Virus record (IMG/VR): IMGVR_UViG_2703718784_000012
Location: 1-4,738 of that record
Direction: 5' to 3' (one strand)
Length of the DNA: 4,738 nucleotides
DNA from: a virus
Lineage: Duplodnaviria; Heunggongvirae; Uroviricota; Caudoviricetes
Shown here: piece by piece, positions 1 through 4,738 of the stretch
Position numbering within the stretch: the first letter of the stretch is position 1
Layout: each line of letters begins with the position of its first letter
Program-made: the position numbers and the translations under genes
Notes under the pieces: model-generated
What the model was told of the DNA's origin: nothing
What the model saw: the letters and a program-made list of their open reading frames with translations, nothing else
The model's database searches: none

Positions 1-158
1 TGAGGATGAAATAATCCCGTTCAGCGGTGTCTGCCAGTCGGGGGCCGGTTGCATTATCCACGCCGGAGGTGCCGGTGGCTTCACGCACGGTACCGTGGCA
101 GGTGGCGTTGATCCGCAGGCGCTTACGACCAGCGGCAACATCAGCACGCAGAGTTTCA
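1..158 (-). CDS. Rz1: Rz1-type o-spanin (outer-membrane lipoprotein) embedded in the +1 frame of Rz; last few codons outside the window
   Basis: ATG at 158..156 inside Rz in an alternate frame; translation MKLCVLMLPLVVSACGSTPPATVPCVKPPAPPAWIMQPAPDWQTPLNGIISSS shows a lipoprotein signal with lipobox VSAC and a proline-rich mature part, matching the remembered lambda Rz1 pattern (PPAWIMQPPPDWQTPLNGII). Confidence 0.8.
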
Positions 159-394
159 TTTTCAGCTCTCGCATCGGCTAATTCCCTCGAGTATTTTGCA
201 TCGAGCGCAGCAACATCGCGCTGGCGCACCTGCATATCAGTAATGGTTGCGTTCGCCAGCTTCAGTTCACTGGCTTTGTTATCGCGCTGCGCTTTGTAGG
301 TAATCGCGTTATCACGGTAATGGTCTGTTGCCATCCACATCGCTCCACAGGCCACCAGCAGGACAATAATCACCACACACAGAACACGGTTCAT
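1..394 (-). CDS. Rz: Rz-type i-spanin (inner-membrane spanin subunit); C-terminal end lies outside the window
   Basis: Not in the ORF track because it has no stop inside the window. Reverse complement of 2..394 translates without stop as MNRVLCVVIIVLLVACGAMWMATDHYRDNAITYKAQRDNKASELKLANATITDMQVRQRDVAALDAKYSRELADARAENETLRADVAAGRKRLRINATCHGTVREATGTSGVDNATGPRLADTAERDYFIL. N-terminal TM helix then helical periplasmic region; closely resembles lambda Rz as I remember it (HYRDNAITYKAQRD, AERDYF). ATG at 394..392 preceded by GAGGGGG SD. Confidence 0.85.
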   Translation of the reverse strand, partial: MNRVLCVVIIVLLVACGAMWMATDHYRDNAITYKAQRDNKASELKLANATITDMQVRQRDVAALDAKYSRELADARAENETLRADVAAGRKRLRINATCHGTVREATGTSGVDNATGPRLADTAERDYFIL

Positions 395-534
395 ATCCCC
401 CTCACCCCAGCATCCCCGACGAAGACAACATCATCCAGCCCAGGGAAAGAAAAATAGCAACCAGCATTAGTGAAAATGAAATGCCGACGATTACACAGAG
501 GATCTTCGCCAGCGTTATGACGCTTGTCTGACAT
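391..534 (-). CDS. Hypothetical 47-aa ORF translationally coupled to Rz (possibly only a coupling leader ORF)
   Basis: Below the size cutoff of the supplied track. ATG 534..532 preceded by AAGAGGA (541..547) with a 6-nt spacer; translation MSDKRHNAGEDPLCNRRHFIFTNAGCYFSFPGLDDVVFVGDAGVRGI; stop TGA (393..391) overlaps the Rz ATG as ATGA. Signals are good but the protein has no recognisable features. Confidence 0.3.
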   Translation of the reverse strand: MSDKRHNAGEDPLCNRRHFIFTNAGCYFSFPGLDDVVFVGDAGVRGI

Positions 535-546
535 GCTTAATCCTCT

Positions 547-729
547 TCACGATTTCAACGCAATGACCAGTTTTGCTAGTCCATACAGCATCGGAGACAC
601 AGCAATACCGACCGCCACCCACTTAATAGCAAAAGCCAGCGCTCTGCTGATGTCATCAGTTACAGGCGCTTTCAGTTCAAGGCCGTTTTTCATAGTCAAC
701 CTCAACAGAATTCGTTTATACTTTTCCAT
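547..729 (-). CDS. Hypothetical 60-aa protein with basic N-terminus and one C-terminal hydrophobic helix
   Basis: Track ORF 547..762 starts at a GTG inside the terminator hairpin with no SD. The internal ATG at 729..727 has AGGGAG 3-4 nt upstream, giving MEKYKRILLRLTMKNGLELKAPVTDDISRALAFAIKWVAVGIAVSPMLYGLAKLVIALKS. No family recognised. Confidence 0.45.
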   Translation of the reverse strand: MEKYKRILLRLTMKNGLELKAPVTDDISRALAFAIKWVAVGIAVSPMLYGLAKLVIALKS

Positions 730-762
730 GTTCTCCCTTGCCTTATCCAAGGTCAGAAACAC

Positions 763-803
763 AAAACCCCGCTTGCTGCCAACAAACGGGGTTTTTACTT
801 TTA
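763..803. terminator. Bidirectional intrinsic-terminator-like hairpin between endolysin and downstream small ORFs
   Basis: Stem 767..775 CCCCGCTTG pairs with 783..791 CAAACGGGG (one mismatch), 7-nt loop; flanked by AAAA (763..766) and TTTTTACTTTT (792..802), so a U-tract follows the hairpin on both strands. Confidence 0.5.
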
Positions 804-885
804 TTCACTTAGGTTTTGCCAGTTCGCAGGATTTCGTGTTATCCGTCCGCGTTGGCCAACGTCATTTTTCAGCAAAATATTCTGC

Positions 886-1419
886 TTATCTGTCGATTCC
901 CCAGCACGCCAGCGCGCTCTCCTGGTCACGACGGGATATCTGGCCGTAACAGTTGTTTGAGCGGATACGGCAGTCTCTGCCACCGTCCTTAATCCACCAG
1001 CGAATCGCTTCACACGCTCCCCTGCGATCGCCTGCATTAATTCGTTTATAAAACGTCGACGGGAAACACTTACCGGGGCCAATGTTATACGGGCAGAATG
1101 ACGCGATCCCCGCTTTCTGGGGTTCAGTCAGTGGCACCCGGATGTTTTTCTCCACCCATGCCAGCGCCTTATCACGCTCAATGGCGTTAACCTGGTCGCA
1201 TTTTTTCTTCGACAACTTCATGCCCGGGACGACAGGTTTGCCATCCACCCTGGTGGCACCACGACAAATGGTCCAGATCCCCGCACCATCACGGTATGCC
1301 GTGGTGTGGTTACCTTCTTTTTCATCCAGAAACTGGTCGAGAATATCAGGCGCAGGCGCCCCTGCGGCAATCAGCGCCAGAACGGCAGCCGACAGGCCGT
1401 ATTTGATTTTGGTGTTCAT
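886..1419 (-). CDS. R: SAR endolysin (signal-anchor-release lysozyme, T4-lysozyme-like glycoside hydrolase)
   Basis: 177-aa ORF MNTKIKYGLSAAVLALIAAGAPAPDILDQFLDEKEGNHTTAYRDGAGIWTICRG. Weakly hydrophobic Gly/Ala-rich N-terminal segment typical of a SAR domain, then E35-x8-D44-x5-T50, the catalytic triad spacing of phage 21 R21-type lysozymes as I recall it. Partnered with a pinholin upstream, as expected for this lysis type. No canonical SD upstream of ATG 1419. Confidence 0.9.
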   Translation of the reverse strand: MNTKIKYGLSAAVLALIAAGAPAPDILDQFLDEKEGNHTTAYRDGAGIWTICRGATRVDGKPVVPGMKLSKKKCDQVNAIERDKALAWVEKNIRVPLTEPQKAGIASFCPYNIGPGKCFPSTFYKRINAGDRRGACEAIRWWIKDGGRDCRIRSNNCYGQISRRDQESALACWGIDR

Positions 1420-1549
1420 GGATATTTATCAGGATTTATCGGTTCCGAATCCCTGGATATGTTAAGCCTTCACCCCACCAGTGGTGGGCACTGGCGGGTT
1501 CTTAATTTCCCCGGATGATCGTGGATTACATTCCACCAGGAGATTACTT

Positions 1550-2182
1550 ATGCTTATCTATCCAGCGGCAGACCTCCGTTTACAGGGACGCAGAGCACAA
1601 CCATGGGATAAAACAACCACTCATAAATATCGTCCCGGTCAATATTATGACTTTCGTAAACACCCGGAACTGATCGAGACACACCTTGAGGATTTTGTTG
1701 AATATTCAGACAGACAAGCGATTCAGACCTTTTTTTCTTTTGTTAAGTGGATCAACAGCAATTCATCTGCATTCGAGAGCACGGACTGCATGTTTTCAGG
1801 AACACCAAAGGTTGATGAATACGCCCCGGTATTTGGTTGCACCCATGCGTCATCTGGCCGCTTCGAATTTTTGTTTCGCGATACGAAAATAAACCAAAAT
1901 GAGCGAGCTGTCGGATGGGTACTTAACAAACTATCGCTCTACCTTCAGAAAGAACGGCCCGATTTTTGTAAAGGAACCTTTGGCATCGTTCCCCTCATGA
2001 CGGAATATACCGACTCCGGCAGTAACGAGTTCACCGGTTATCGTATTTGTGTCTATTTCGATGCTTACGGGAATGGAACAGAGGATACCTGGACTTCTCT
2101 CAACATCATGTTTGATGGCCTCATGAAAGCCACCAAAAGAATGAGCAATGAAACAATCACTGGCGAGATGCGTCCCCTTTAA
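1550..2182 (+). CDS. Hypothetical ~210-aa protein, opposite strand to the lysis genes (moron-like cargo)
   Basis: ORF open from 1481; ATG at 1550 chosen because AGGAG (1538..1542) sits 7 nt upstream. Stop TAA 2180..2182 is followed 26 nt later by a hairpin plus T7. Sampled 60-nt blocks are about 35-45% GC versus about 55% in the endolysin. No motif I can assign. The 3' 252 nt overlap minus ORF 1931..2722 in the codon-aligned antisense frame, so one of the two may be a shadow. Confidence 0.5.
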   Translation: MLIYPAADLRLQGRRAQPWDKTTTHKYRPGQYYDFRKHPELIETHLEDFVEYSDRQAIQTFFSFVKWINSNSSAFESTDCMFSGTPKVDEYAPVFGCTHASSGRFEFLFRDTKINQNERAVGWVLNKLSLYLQKERPDFCKGTFGIVPLMTEYTDSGSNEFTGYRICVYFDAYGNGTEDTWTSLNIMFDGLMKATKRMSNETITGEMRPL

Positions 2183-2722
2183 AAAATTATCCAGAATTTC
2201 ACTATTTGCAGAGCGCTCTCTGTTTTTTTGAATACGGAAACACTCTGCGAGATTTCTGCTCATCACTTTCCGGCAATAATCGTAAAACGCCGCGAACTGC
2301 TCATCACGGCGTTTTTTTTCACCTTCGGAAGGGATCTGCACCGACAGTTTTTTATTCAGTTCAACGACGCTGTTCTCCAGTTTTTCAATGCGTGATTCGA
2401 TATCATCTTTTTCTGACTGTATCGTGTTATATGCATTGTTAATTTGTATGGTATACCGCTCTTCTGAACAAAGGCGCTTTTCCGGCAACGGTTCGTTCCC
2501 TTCACATAACCCGGCAGCAATATCCATGAAAAACTGCTTCGCCTTCTTTTTCGCCTCAGCTTCGTAAAACTCCAGCGGGGCACCTTCAACACGATCAAGA
2601 TCAATCACCACATTTGGCAACAACAGTGACGTATACCCACCAGTTTCCAGCGCCACAGTAACAGTAATCTTATCCGGGTAAATATTTATCCCTTTAACAA
2701 CCAGTTCGTATTGTTTATTCAT
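1931..2722 (-). CDS. Hypothetical 263-aa protein translationally coupled to the pinholin; central coiled-coil-like segment
   Basis: ATG 2722..2720 lies 3 nt after the holin stop TAG (2728..2726); SD GGAG at 2734..2731 with 8-nt spacer lies inside the holin 3' end. Translation MNKQYELVVKGINIYPDKITVTVALETGGYTSLLLPNVVIDLDRVEGAP..., heptad-like middle (DIESRIEKLENSVVELNKKL). The C-terminal 84 codons are antisense to the plus-strand ORF 1550..2182. No family recognised. Confidence 0.5.
   Translation of the reverse strand: MNKQYELVVKGINIYPDKITVTVALETGGYTSLLLPNVVIDLDRVEGAPLEFYEAEAKKKAKQFFMDIAAGLCEGNEPLPEKRLCSEERYTIQINNAYNTIQSEKDDIESRIEKLENSVVELNKKLSVQIPSEGEKKRRDEQFAAFYDYCRKVMSRNLAECFRIQKNRERSANSEILDNFLKGTHLASDCFIAHSFGGFHEAIKHDVERSPGILCSIPVSIEIDTNTITGELVTAGVGIFRHEGNDAKGSFTKIGPFFLKVER
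2208..2229 (+). terminator. Intrinsic-terminator-like hairpin plus T7 after the plus-strand cargo ORF
   Basis: CAGAG (2209..2213), loop CGCT, CTCTG (2218..2222), then TTTTTTT (2223..2229). Short 5-bp stem, so moderate at best. It lies inside the minus-strand 263-aa ORF. Confidence 0.4.
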
Positions 2723-2725
2723 CGT

Positions 2726-2941
2726 CTACTCTCCCCGCGCCGCCTTACGCCGGTCTTCTTTAATTTTGAAATACAGGTTCGTCAGATATGTCAGCAGACC
2801 AAACAGCAGACTCCCCAGCACGCCTATTGCCGCCCACTGAGACGGGGAAACCCTGTCCAGCAACTGCAGGAACCAGTAGCCCGTTCCCACCGCTGACGTG
2901 GTGTATGACACACCTGTTGTGATTTTTTCCATCTGGTACAT
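2726..2941 (-). CDS. S: Pinholin, phage 21 S21-type class II holin with dual-start (antiholin/holin) motif
   Basis: 71 aa [71 protein letters not shown]: two TM segments (first Gly/Ser/Thr-rich), charged C-terminus, Met1 and Met4 as alternative starts. Very close to my memory of S21 ([36 protein letters not shown]). SD GGGAG (2953..2949) 7 nt upstream of ATG 2941. Confidence 0.9.
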
Positions 2942-3016
2942 ACCCCGTCTCCCGCAATCCGGAAGCTCACAACAACAAGTGGGGCATCAGCTCACACCGA
3001 CACCCCCTGCGCATGG

Positions 3017-3286
3017 TTACATCATCATTTCGCCGTCAGGCTGAGGCTCTTCACTACCGTCAGGCTGAGACCCGACGCCATCTGAAACAGCACTGTCATC
3101 CGCAATGCCTTCCGGCTCCGGAACAGTCGGTGCGCCCAGCAGTTCATCCAGAATGGCATCCACTTCTGCATCAAGACGCGCCTCAAGGTTCTGCCGAAGT
3201 TGCTGTTTCAGTGCGCTTCTGACTTCTTCAGAGCGCAGGACTTCCTTCACTGCCTCAGCAGTGACCAGCGATTTTATTTCTGACAT
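3017..3286 (-). CDS. Hypothetical 89-aa acidic helical protein
   Basis: Track ORF 3017..3439; the N-terminal extension would overlap the upstream small ORF and looks non-protein-like. Internal ATG at 3286..3284 gives MSEIKSLVTAEAVKEVLRSEEVRSALKQQLRQNLEARLDAEVDAILDELLGAPTVPEPEGIADDSAVSDGVGSQPDGSEEPQPDGEMMM; weak SD (GAGAAAA). No family recognised. Confidence 0.5.
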   Translation of the reverse strand: MSEIKSLVTAEAVKEVLRSEEVRSALKQQLRQNLEARLDAEVDAILDELLGAPTVPEPEGIADDSAVSDGVGSQPDGSEEPQPDGEMMM

Positions 3287-3311
3287 AGGATTTTCTCGTT
3301 GAAAGGGGTTA

Positions 3312-3506
3312 TTAAGAAGGTTGTTCCGGAATGAGTGGGGCTTCTGTTTTTGCTCCGGCTGACTGACTGGCGCTGATTTTCTCTGCGGCCCTTTTATCAA
3401 TCTGCCTGCGCCAGGAATCGCGCACTGCCCTGTACCCACCCGAAAGAAGATACAGCACGCATACCACCGTACAGAAGTACAGCATCACCTGATGAACAAA
3501 TGTCAT
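3312..3506 (-). CDS. Hypothetical 64-aa small membrane protein
   Basis: MTFVHQVMLYFCTVVCVLYLLSGGYRAVRDSWRRQIDKRAAEKISASQSAGAKTEAPLIPEQPS: one N-terminal TM helix then a basic tail. Weak SD. An alternative overlapping ORF (3397..3579) cannot be excluded. Confidence 0.4.
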   Translation of the reverse strand: MTFVHQVMLYFCTVVCVLYLLSGGYRAVRDSWRRQIDKRAAEKISASQSAGAKTEAPLIPEQPS

Positions 3507-3524
3507 AGTTTCTTACCGTTATGG

Positions 3525-3554
3525 TTGACTCTGGAAGCAGTTTTCGTTTAAAAA
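3525..3554 (+). promoter_or_regulatory. Weak sigma70-like promoter candidate on the plus strand
   Basis: TTGACT (3525..3530), 18-nt spacer, TAAAAA (3549..3554). The -35 is near consensus but the -10 lacks the conserved final T, so this is weak. Confidence 0.15.
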
Positions 3555-3609
3555 ATACCAGTGACGAAAGTGATATCATCTTTCCCTGATTCTCACCATG
3601 AATCTCACA

Positions 3610-3645
3610 CCGCCAGGGGTTTCAGGCCAGCTGGCGGTTTTTTTT
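3610..3645 (+). terminator. GC-rich hairpin followed by T8 (plus-strand intrinsic-terminator-like element)
   Basis: CCGCCAG (3610..3616) can pair with CTGGCGG (3631..3637); an internal 10-nt palindrome GCCAGCTGGC (3626..3635) offers an alternative stem; followed by TTTTTTTT (3638..3645). On the minus strand the hairpin is preceded by A8 and not followed by a U-tract, so it is oriented for plus-strand transcripts only. Confidence 0.45.
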
Positions 3646-3650
3646 GCCGG

Positions 3651-4738
3651 TTATGCTGATTCCCGGTTTTCGTTAACTTTGACTGTGACCGTATCAAGCA
3701 GTACCGGATACGTCGCTTTTGCCCCCGTGATATCTGTCAGCGTCAGCGTATCTGCTGTAAAGCCATCATTTGTCCACATCACAAGGTCAAATGCCGTCTG
3801 CTCTGCACCATCAATCACCGGAACAACTCTTTCGCTGTTATTTCCCGCAAAGCGGAAAACAACCGTATGCCAGTTATGGTCAAACGTACCAAATGTACCC
3901 AGTTGTGCATTCGAGGAGCCCTTCTGGTGCATCAGATTAAGATTTGATGTATCCGTCTGAAGGAAGAATGATGCCAGCATACTGTTTGCTGTCGCGCCTG
4001 ACGCCCACTGCGACACCGGCCAGTAGATACCAAAGACAAACTGTCCGTTCACCAGCTCGCTTCCATCCGGAATTTTGAACCGTACGGCAATTTCCCCCCC
4101 CTTGCTGAGAAGATTTTTTGCCTCCTCCACTGCAATAGTACGGAACATTTTCCAGGACGTCAGTTTACCGGGCTGTTTTTCCAGTCGCAGCGCTTTCCGT
4201 CCACCGTCATCAGTCACAGTGCCTTTGCCGCCGGAAGCGCCCCACTGCTGCTCTGTCAATGCACCATTTCCACTGTTCGCATCATATTCAGCCACCGTCC
4301 TGGTACTGCTCACGGCCTCATCATGACCAGTACCAGCAACACCGCCATCCTGCGGTTTCTCAACATCCGGTGTCCCCGGACTGACAGGCGTTGTACCACC
4401 CGACTGCGGTGCGCTCTGCCCGGTAAGGAACGATAATGTCCGCCCGGCGTACTGCAAAATGGCACCTGCCAGGCGGTCTGAAACAAGGCCTCTTCGCGCC
4501 CATGAACTGAAGTGCGTTTTACGATCGGCTGCCGTCCAGTTACTGGCAGTGCGTGACGCAGCGCCATAGTATCCCGCCGGGATAATGTCCGGATCTTCTG
4601 ACGGCTCGTTTGTCGGCACATTCACACCATGCTCATCCGTCATCAACGGCACAAAGTGAATATTCTGCGCAGCTTTTCCTTTATACCCACCGTAAACCGC
4701 CTCATACGGCACTGCATACCTTTCCTTCCAGTAGTACG
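3651..4738 (-). CDS. Large hypothetical protein, 3' portion only (ORF continues upstream beyond the window end)
   Basis: Track ORF 3651..4712 starts at a GTG, but the frame stays open to the window edge (upstream codons read YYWKERYA), so the true start is outside. Stop TAA at 3653..3651. Has a Gly/Ser/Thr/Pro-rich linker (GQSAPQSGGTTPVSPGTPDVEKPQDGGVAGTGHDE) between two globular-looking parts. It occupies the slot upstream of the holin where Stx phages carry stx and a large esterase-like ORF, but I see no diagnostic motif. Confidence 0.7.
   Translation of the reverse strand, partial: YYWKERYAVPYEAVYGGYKGKAAQNIHFVPLMTDEHGVNVPTNEPSEDPDIIPAGYYGAASRTASNWTAADRKTHFSSWARRGLVSDRLAGAILQYAGRTLSFLTGQSAPQSGGTTPVSPGTPDVEKPQDGGVAGTGHDEAVSSTRTVAEYDANSGNGALTEQQWGASGGKGTVTDDGGRKALRLEKQPGKLTSWKMFRTIAVEEAKNLLSKGGEIAVRFKIPDGSELVNGQFVFGIYWPVSQWASGATANSMLASFFLQTDTSNLNLMHQKGSSNAQLGTFGTFDHNWHTVVFRFAGNNSERVVPVIDGAEQTAFDLVMWTNDGFTADTLTLTDITGAKATYPVLLDTVTVKVNENRESA

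Follow-up and report, generated by a model that had tools for sequence, protein, structure and literature searches.

Several phages are known to make small late membrane proteins by which the time of lysis is adjusted, for example the holin/antiholin pairs and extra holin-like proteins of P21 (S68/S71) and P1 (LydA-D) (PMC9025707). In phage Mu, the releasin gp25 (DUF2730), a small membrane-tethered protein encoded in a lysis cluster with a signal-arrest-release (SAR) endolysin, controls the release of that endolysin (PMC9239132). A further example is Lcc6, a 65-amino-acid (aa) single-pass membrane protein of the lambda-like Shewanella phage LambdaSo, which has a pinholin/SAR-endolysin/Rz-Rz1 system; Lcc6 acts at the holin level, is essential for lysis, and is harmless when expressed alone (bioRxiv 10.1101/2024.01.23.576932). 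Here, we analyzed two small open reading frames (ORFs) located between the endolysin gene and the spanin gene Rz in a 4,738-nt stretch of viral DNA (IMG/VR record IMGVR_UViG_2703718784_000012, positions 1 to 4,738; hereafter, the window). The window is part of the late region of an E. coli lambdoid prophage, with its lysis genes on the minus strand in the order P21-type pinholin, DUF1327, SAR endolysin, hairpin, A, B, and Rz/Rz1. The nearest complete genomes are those of E. coli strains, with up to 98.4% identity across the whole window. In this nomenclature, A is the 60-aa ORF and B is the gene of an intact 43-aa peptide; L numbers indicate compared loci or contigs, and P numbers indicate protein clusters. 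We hold with high confidence that A and B are two separate conserved genes, that A is intact, and that B is present in the window as a null allele created by a +1G frameshift, which is read as an ORF of 47 codons.

A preliminary description of this DNA had placed the two ORFs at 729..547 and 534..391, each behind a Shine-Dalgarno (SD) sequence, with the second overlapping the start of Rz as ATGA. All of these elements are present in the sequence, the SDs being GGGAG and AGAGGA. The 47-codon ORF extends on the minus strand from ATG 534 to TGA 393..391 and starts at the true ATG and SD (546..541) of B. When compared to relatives that are 99% identical at the nucleotide level, with the same SD and ATG and in the same place 5' of Rz, the frame differs by a single extra G at position 521, which changes GACAAGC-TCATA to GACAAGCGTCATA (alignment A1, column 263), lies outside any homopolymer run, and is shared by STEC17-183. 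The insertion shifts the frame at codon 5, such that 42 codons are read out of frame and the whole transmembrane segment is lost. The leftover B frame (402..518, minus strand), encoding ITLAKILCVIVGISFSLMLVAIFLSLGWMMLSSSGMLG up to its stop, is otherwise undamaged and has no ATG, GTG, or TTG start. The 47-aa product has a best 19-residue hydropathy of 0.94 and a grand average of hydropathy (GRAVY) of -0.20, without a transmembrane segment, so the earlier view of this ORF as a small membrane protein does not hold. The alternative offered at the time, a remnant of a disrupted gene, proved right in that the 47-codon ORF is disrupted, by a +1 frameshift of a 43-aa gene, and wrong in that no larger gene covering the two ORFs lies behind it.

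The coding statistics point in the same direction. The ratio of nonsynonymous to synonymous polymorphism (pN/pS), taken over 17 distinct intact alleles, is 0.51 for the B frame and 1.27 for that of the 47-aa product; these ratios, and the nonsynonymous-to-synonymous substitution ratios (dN/dS) given below, were computed on sets cleared of indel alleles. The 47-aa frame is open because the hydrophobic NTN codons of B are read there as NNT: T is the second base in 22 of the 38 codons of B, each of which yields NNT, never a stop, in this (+2) frame. Upon codon shuffling, the 47-aa frame remains stop-free in 76% of cases versus 0.5% for the third frame, and the length of the ORF is thus no greater than chance would give. 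We conclude that the 47-codon ORF is an out-of-frame by-product of the separate gene B, i.e., the product of a frameshift pseudogene. That the 47-aa frame is used through programmed or dual coding, an idea hinted at by a PHROG family and by the entry of this frame into Rz in some phages, is rejected on the pN/pS of 1.27 and the codon structure. The family concerned, PHROG 3246, is the one matched by the 47-aa translation, which does not match PHROG 4906, the family of B, and which has no match in Pfam at E<=1. PHROG 3246 itself corresponds to an out-of-frame ORF call in which the +2 frame of B is fused to the C terminus of A (the arrangement of L003, 805..1077), and it is probably an artefactual family.

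The apparent coupling of the ORF to Rz has the same origin. The ATGA at 394..391 overlaps the stop of the 47-codon ORF with the Rz ATG, whereas intact B stops at TGA 404..402, 7 nt before that ATG. As intact alleles end earlier, the overlap exists here because of the frameshift, and the coupling with Rz is incidental. Similarly, A and the 47-codon ORF share a frame in the window (729 and 534 are both multiples of 3), with TGA and four codons between them. Among relatives, 80 loci have 14 nt between the A stop and the B ATG and 31 have 12 nt, and since the spacing alternates in this manner, the shared frame is accidental. The same spacing rules out a single gene with TGA read-through. A split YdfR/DUF826 gene is likewise rejected: Pfam is empty for both ORFs and for their fused translation, and YdfR/DUF1327 and DUF826 genes are found elsewhere in the cassette.

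Intact B encodes MSDKLITLAKILCVIVGISFSLMLVAIFLSLGWMMLSSSGMLG in 43 codons from the same ATG. This form is present in L005, with variants in L001-L003 and L207, and is carried by STEC2018-607 (99% identical), PhiR12_1, PhiR12_3, vB_EcoS-569R3, and LZSFT34, the best match to the whole window. The peptide of L005 matches PHROG 4906 (E=3.5e-22). B is very hydrophobic and single-pass, with a best 19-residue Kyte-Doolittle window of 2.93. Its length of 43 to 44 aa is retained down to 60 to 67% identity, also in Citrobacter and Cronobacter, and pairwise comparisons, one of them with a 63%-identical copy taken from a different type of cassette, give a dN/dS of 0.24 to 0.44. Of 50,697 phage records, 276 contain B-like ORFs; most of these records belong to Shiga toxin (Stx)-converting phages, and the ORFs are often unannotated.

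The allele of the window is real, inherited, and rare. Anchoring on the B start recovered 116 usable IMG/VR contigs, 104 of which carry the intact 43-aa B, while 11 show four other kinds of indel or extension and one (L124) has the +1G allele. In complete E. coli genomes, the exact 81-nt stretch of the +1G allele is found seven times (Switzerland, China, and Japan), against approximately 992 genomes that have the locus at full length. A second broken form, with an 11-bp deletion, is common in O157:H7-type genomes (up to ~283 genomes). It arose independently, keeps the transmembrane segment, has its tail replaced, enters the same frame, and ends on the same ATGA. In the window, ribosomes that start at the normal SD and ATG of B read 42 out-of-frame codons and stop at the ATGA on the Rz start; the allele is thus null for the peptide and still brings ribosomes to Rz. 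The window's own feature, a rare frameshift allele, is in itself ordinary, and the result amounts to a correction: the ORF that was missing from the annotation is the frameshift artefact of a real gene.

ORF A extends on the minus strand from ATG 729 to TGA 549..547 (SD GGGAG at 737..733) and is intact over its 60 codons. A second in-frame start, ATG 693..691 with GAGG upstream, would yield a 48-aa core form. The C-terminal hydrophobic helix noted earlier is borne out by a best 19-residue Kyte-Doolittle window of 1.90 at residues 38 to 56 and by the AlphaFold model, which shows helices at residues 2 to 15 and 23 to 59 with a loop between them (mean predicted local distance difference test score, 77). 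With eight Lys/Arg residues on the N-terminal side of the helix versus one on the C-terminal side, A probably has an N-in topology, with a basic cytoplasmic N terminus and one C-terminal transmembrane helix in the inner membrane.

In contrast to the 47-aa ORF, A belongs to recognizable families, matching PHROG 1115 over its full length (E=1.4e-42, residues 1 to 60) and PHROG 4493 (E=4.8e-30). Searches of Pfam (E<=1) and NCBIfam returned no family for it. A search of 5.8 billion proteins yielded 121 clusters of homologues, all from Escherichia or Salmonella and all named hypothetical, and a profile search of 1.8 billion cluster representatives found only 16, from which we regard this family of Enterobacteriaceae phages as narrow. 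A scan of genome contigs with the A alignment confirmed no relative, and Foldseek of the A model against BFVD found nothing. Within the family, residues ~30 to ~60 form a nearly invariant core in which 17 columns do not vary (alignment A3; AFAIKWVAVG..SP.LYG.A.L..A.K), and distant relatives at ~50% identity retain MKNGLExDAPVTxEI and YG(I/V)AKL. A is intact, at 60 or 48 aa, in >95% of the sampled contigs, and its dN/dS against Salmonella copies is 0.13 to 0.25 at a synonymous divergence of ~50%. As judged from these sequence comparisons, A is a genuine, conserved, and selected small membrane-protein gene. Of the two reading frames whose conservation the preliminary description had proposed to compare, that of A is therefore maintained and that of the 47-aa ORF (pN/pS of 1.27) is not; its idea of a small membrane protein within the lysis cassette likewise applies to A and not to the 47-aa product.

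The transmembrane helix of A shows a weak likeness to transmembrane domain 2 (TMD2) of the neighboring pinholin, with 6 of 16 identities and a single-comparison E of 0.006. This is at the level expected between transmembrane helices, and we treat it as a weak lead on which nothing is built. The idea of A as a mimic of pinholin TMD2 was rejected: its support is this 16-residue similarity and one chimeric contig, P0120, and A also accompanies cassettes without a pinholin. In the protein predicted from P0120, an ENA contig of 554 bp, the N-terminal half of the P21-type holin is joined through the shared SQW/KW-VAVG motif to the last 23 residues of A, either by recombination at a microhomology or as an assembly chimera.

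Both genes occupy recurrent positions in other phages. A follows the endolysin gene, with a hairpin between them, in three types of cassette. The first is the P21-type pinholin/SAR cassette of E. coli, as in the window; the second is a Salmonella cassette with a pinholin-like protein and a SAR endolysin, in which A abuts Rz and B is absent; the third combines holin_8, holin_3_7, and a GH108 endolysin in E. coli and Citrobacter. B is always located immediately 5' of a spanin gene, also in Stx phages, and this in three arrangements. Besides the order found here, it directly precedes Rz in the order endolysin, antirepressor, B, and Rz (L219 and L221; cluster P0256 alone is on 832 contigs), and it directly precedes the gene of a 60-aa lipoprotein (PHROG 7528) in GH108 cassettes without Rz, where the B-like peptide matches PHROG 4906 (E=4.2e-18). 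The wider pattern is thus one of two unnamed small membrane-protein families at fixed places of the lysis cassette, A after the endolysin gene and B before the spanin gene.

These fixed places beside the endolysin and spanin genes suggest that the two proteins assist in the membrane steps of lysis, for which Lcc6 and the Mu releasin offer precedents, and the repeated position of A beside endolysin genes fits a lysis-associated role. A and B are most simply regarded as late expressed, because no coding-strand promoter was found upstream of A, because they are tightly packed, and because they are on the late strand. Any role of B would be dispensable, given that B is disrupted by multiple indels. 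We therefore tentatively propose, while granting that the case falls somewhat short of even, that A and B are late-expressed, dispensable lysis modulators of the cytoplasmic membrane. The step affected by A would be that of the holin or of endolysin release; B would come in at, or just before, the spanin step. A bolder version, which we consider doubtful, is that both are unrecognised lysis factors, with B gating or acting with outer-membrane disruption and A serving as a tail-anchored partner of the holin/endolysin step. Under this bolder version, and with the same reserve, B would accompany the spanin gene in most Stx-converting phages and in many other lambdoid phages of enterobacteria, and its partner in the Rz-less GH108 cassettes would be a bare 60-aa lipoprotein. 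Were A and B such lysis factors, the window would represent a natural B-null, A-positive allele.

Several observations weigh against a role in lysis. A and B each occur alone and are not an obligate pair, and the Qin prophage of K-12 carries neither, with rrrQ abutting rzpQ, such that the cassette works without them. Selection on B is moderate, at the pN/pS of 0.51, and ~10% of the sampled contigs carry a B gene broken by one of at least five different indels. Every source names A and B as hypothetical proteins, without functional annotation. One variant of A lies outside a lysis cassette altogether: in Salmonella L211, it lies behind a tail-fibre assembly gene with a terminator on either side (2897-2918 and 3229-3242), which gives it a moron-like look. 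Finally, the presence of a hairpin before A in every context is odd for an integral late gene. In the window, this terminator-shaped hairpin is located at 763..795 (minus strand) between the endolysin stop and A, with a fold of -23.2 kcal/mol (z=-3.4). Similar G+C-rich hairpins with a T run follow the endolysin gene in other A-carrying cassette types, as read by eye (L208, ~2915-2945; L213, ~2715-2745); both were absent from the coding-strand output of simple terminator scans of L208 and L213. In lambdoid late transcription, the Q-modified polymerase should read through such a hairpin.

The main rival, which we hold to be a serious though improbable one, takes up these same observations. It regards A and B as moron-type inner-membrane cargo that serves the lysogen, for instance by superinfection exclusion, and that rides in a recombination-tolerant spot. 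The patchy presence among similar cassettes (none in K-12 Qin, A without B, and B without A), the hairpin terminator just before A in all cassette types, and the L211 variant between its terminators count in its favor, and a neighboring 210-aa gene on the opposite strand shows that the region accepts insertions. Other features argue against it. A scan of the window found no sigma-70-like promoter on the coding strand between the endolysin gene and A, and no such promoter-like site was found upstream of A in L213. Both genes are on the strand of the late operon and are tightly packed, with 12 to 14 nt between A and B and either 7 nt or an overlap between B and Rz. B directly precedes the spanin gene in three otherwise unrelated arrangements, and a PADLOC search of A and B gave no matches at E<=0.1. 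Should A and B be without effect on lysis, they would be further examples of small membrane morons. That lysis can depend on small factors is shown by Lcc6 and releasin. The question is testable through natural nulls (+1G and the 11-bp deletion) and through viable carriers, as A together with intact B is found in PhiR12 and PhiR5 isolates that were grown on K-12 and E. coli C.

The remaining alternatives concern the B allele and the status of the ORFs as genes. It is very unlikely that the window allele still produces functional B, by initiation at ATA 518 or by ribosomal frameshifting back into frame. PGAP does call the leftover frame from this ATA as a 38-codon coding sequence in the identical allele of STEC17-183, the rest of the B frame is undamaged, and the allele persists in seven genomes from three countries. 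Yet the sole SD (AGAGGA) is positioned to serve ATG 534, which precedes the ATA by 16 nt, a slippery heptamer is not visible around 521, and the rarity of the allele (7 of ~992) fits a null that is neutral or mildly deleterious. ATA initiates translation very poorly, and its use at 518 is unlikely. More improbable still is a sequencing or assembly error in a source with a normal 43-aa B; the change is a single-base indel, and LZSFT34, the window's closest relative across its full length (98.4%), has intact B, but the G is not inserted in a homopolymer run and the identical 81-nt stretch recurs in seven independently finished genomes and one IMG/VR contig. That neither ORF is a gene, both being spacer or debris of one larger gene conserved as nucleotides only, is barely credible, for although no Pfam or NCBIfam families were found and both ORFs are by coincidence in one frame here, A has its low dN/dS at ~50% synonymous divergence from Salmonella and keeps both motifs in relatives of ~50% identity, B keeps its 43 to 44 aa down to 60 to 67% identity across genera, and the 12/14-nt alternation of their spacing leaves the frames unlinked.

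In terms of known families, PHROG 1115 and 4493 for A and PHROG 4906 for B are existing phage families without assigned function, to which the matches are strong and full length. A full-text literature search for the peptide strings found no paper. By analogy, the kind of role proposed for A may resemble that of Lcc6. Lcc6 has an N-terminal transmembrane domain and a 43-aa cytoplasmic tail, its gene is distant from those for lysis, and lysis requires it, whereas the helix of A is C-terminal and A and B adjoin the lysis genes and are dispensable. The comparison with releasin meets a similar difference, as gp25 has an N-terminal transmembrane segment followed by a cytoplasmic domain and Mu has no pinholin, unlike the phage of the window. 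Neither A nor B belongs to the releasin family, as they have no Pfam match and the helix of A is C-terminal. The two in-frame starts of A, each with its own SD and the longer form adding a basic N terminus, recall the dual-start motifs of holin/antiholin genes. In contrast to holins, A and B have one transmembrane helix each and no charged C-terminal tail, and they also occur with a non-SAR GH108 endolysin and with other holin types; at E<=1, Pfam matched none of the three products (A, B, and the 47-aa translation) to the P21 class II family (PF04971) or to other holin families. They are not spanins either, having at most ~14 residues beyond the transmembrane helix and no lipobox, with Rz and Rz1 as separate downstream genes; an i-spanin combines an N-terminal transmembrane domain with ~100 aa of periplasmic coiled coil, and an o-spanin has a lipobox. 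In size and composition, B (~43 aa, hydrophobic, single-pass) is like depolarising type I toxins such as Hok, Ldr, Ibs, and TisB, but it lies within a tightly coupled operon and not in a stand-alone locus with an antisense RNA. Pfam and Rfam gave no type I toxin or antisense family, the sole Rfam match in the window being a sub-threshold rimP-leader on the hairpin.

The other genes of the cassette are all on the minus strand, with one exception. The P21-type class II holin (pinholin) is encoded at 2941..2726 (PF04971, E=7e-33), and the SAR-type endolysin of the T4-lysozyme family at 886..1419 (PF00959, E=1.5e-24); the latter is annotated as lysozyme in relatives and has a Gly/Ala-rich N-terminal anchor typical of SAR endolysins. 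Rz (i-spanin; 1..394, ATG 394..392; PF03245, E=1.8e-38) is cut by the end of the window, and Rz1 (o-spanin), embedded in Rz from ATG 174, has a lipobox (LVVSAC) in its translation. A truncated DUF1327/YdfR-like gene lies at 1931..2722 (PF07041; PHROG 2091 over residues 1 to 168). Its 263-aa ORF is DUF1327/YdfR-like only in the first ~170 residues, the remainder running antisense through the 210-aa ORF, and PGAP flags its homologue as a truncated pseudogene in L207 and L004. The exception is this 210-aa ORF (1550..2182, plus strand, opposite the lysis genes), located between the truncated gene and the endolysin gene. It had no match in Pfam, PHROG, PADLOC, or PDB-sequence searches and is unannotated in the closest RefSeq genome (L207), and a 99.5%-identical hypothetical protein is present in eight Stx1a/Stx2a phage records. 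We regard it as a candidate moron.

Further small transmembrane ORFs were seen in the compared loci. The GH108 cassettes (L213, 2807..3461; L216-L218, ~2296..2822) have no Rz-type i-spanin. Their endolysin gene is followed on its 3' side by small transmembrane ORFs, namely, a 65-aa ORF, A or a 38-aa short form of A, and the B-like ORF, and then by the 60-aa lipoprotein (lipobox LVGC). In L216 and L217 (1..859), genes for the A and B subunits of an LT-II-like enterotoxin (PF01375 and PF06453) are located directly upstream of the holin gene of the GH108 cassette, in the position that stx takes in Stx phages. In vB_EcoS-569R3 (L003, 612..1176), the interval between endolysin and Rz contains an A-like peptide ending in LIVAIKG, then B, a 38-aa truncated A with a GTG start, and a 28-aa paralogue, MSAELIRAMAFAIRIVAIAVLVWAIRWW, which matches PHROG 4493; the small transmembrane ORFs of this locus are shuffled by recombination. 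In L208 (2715..2813), a hydrophobic ORF of 32 codons, MAAMICFVAAFMLACDGRSGWGWFLLVGLIVM, overlaps the SAR lysozyme gene of Salmonella at its 3' end and continues beyond it, with a weak match to PHROG 14810 (E=0.003).

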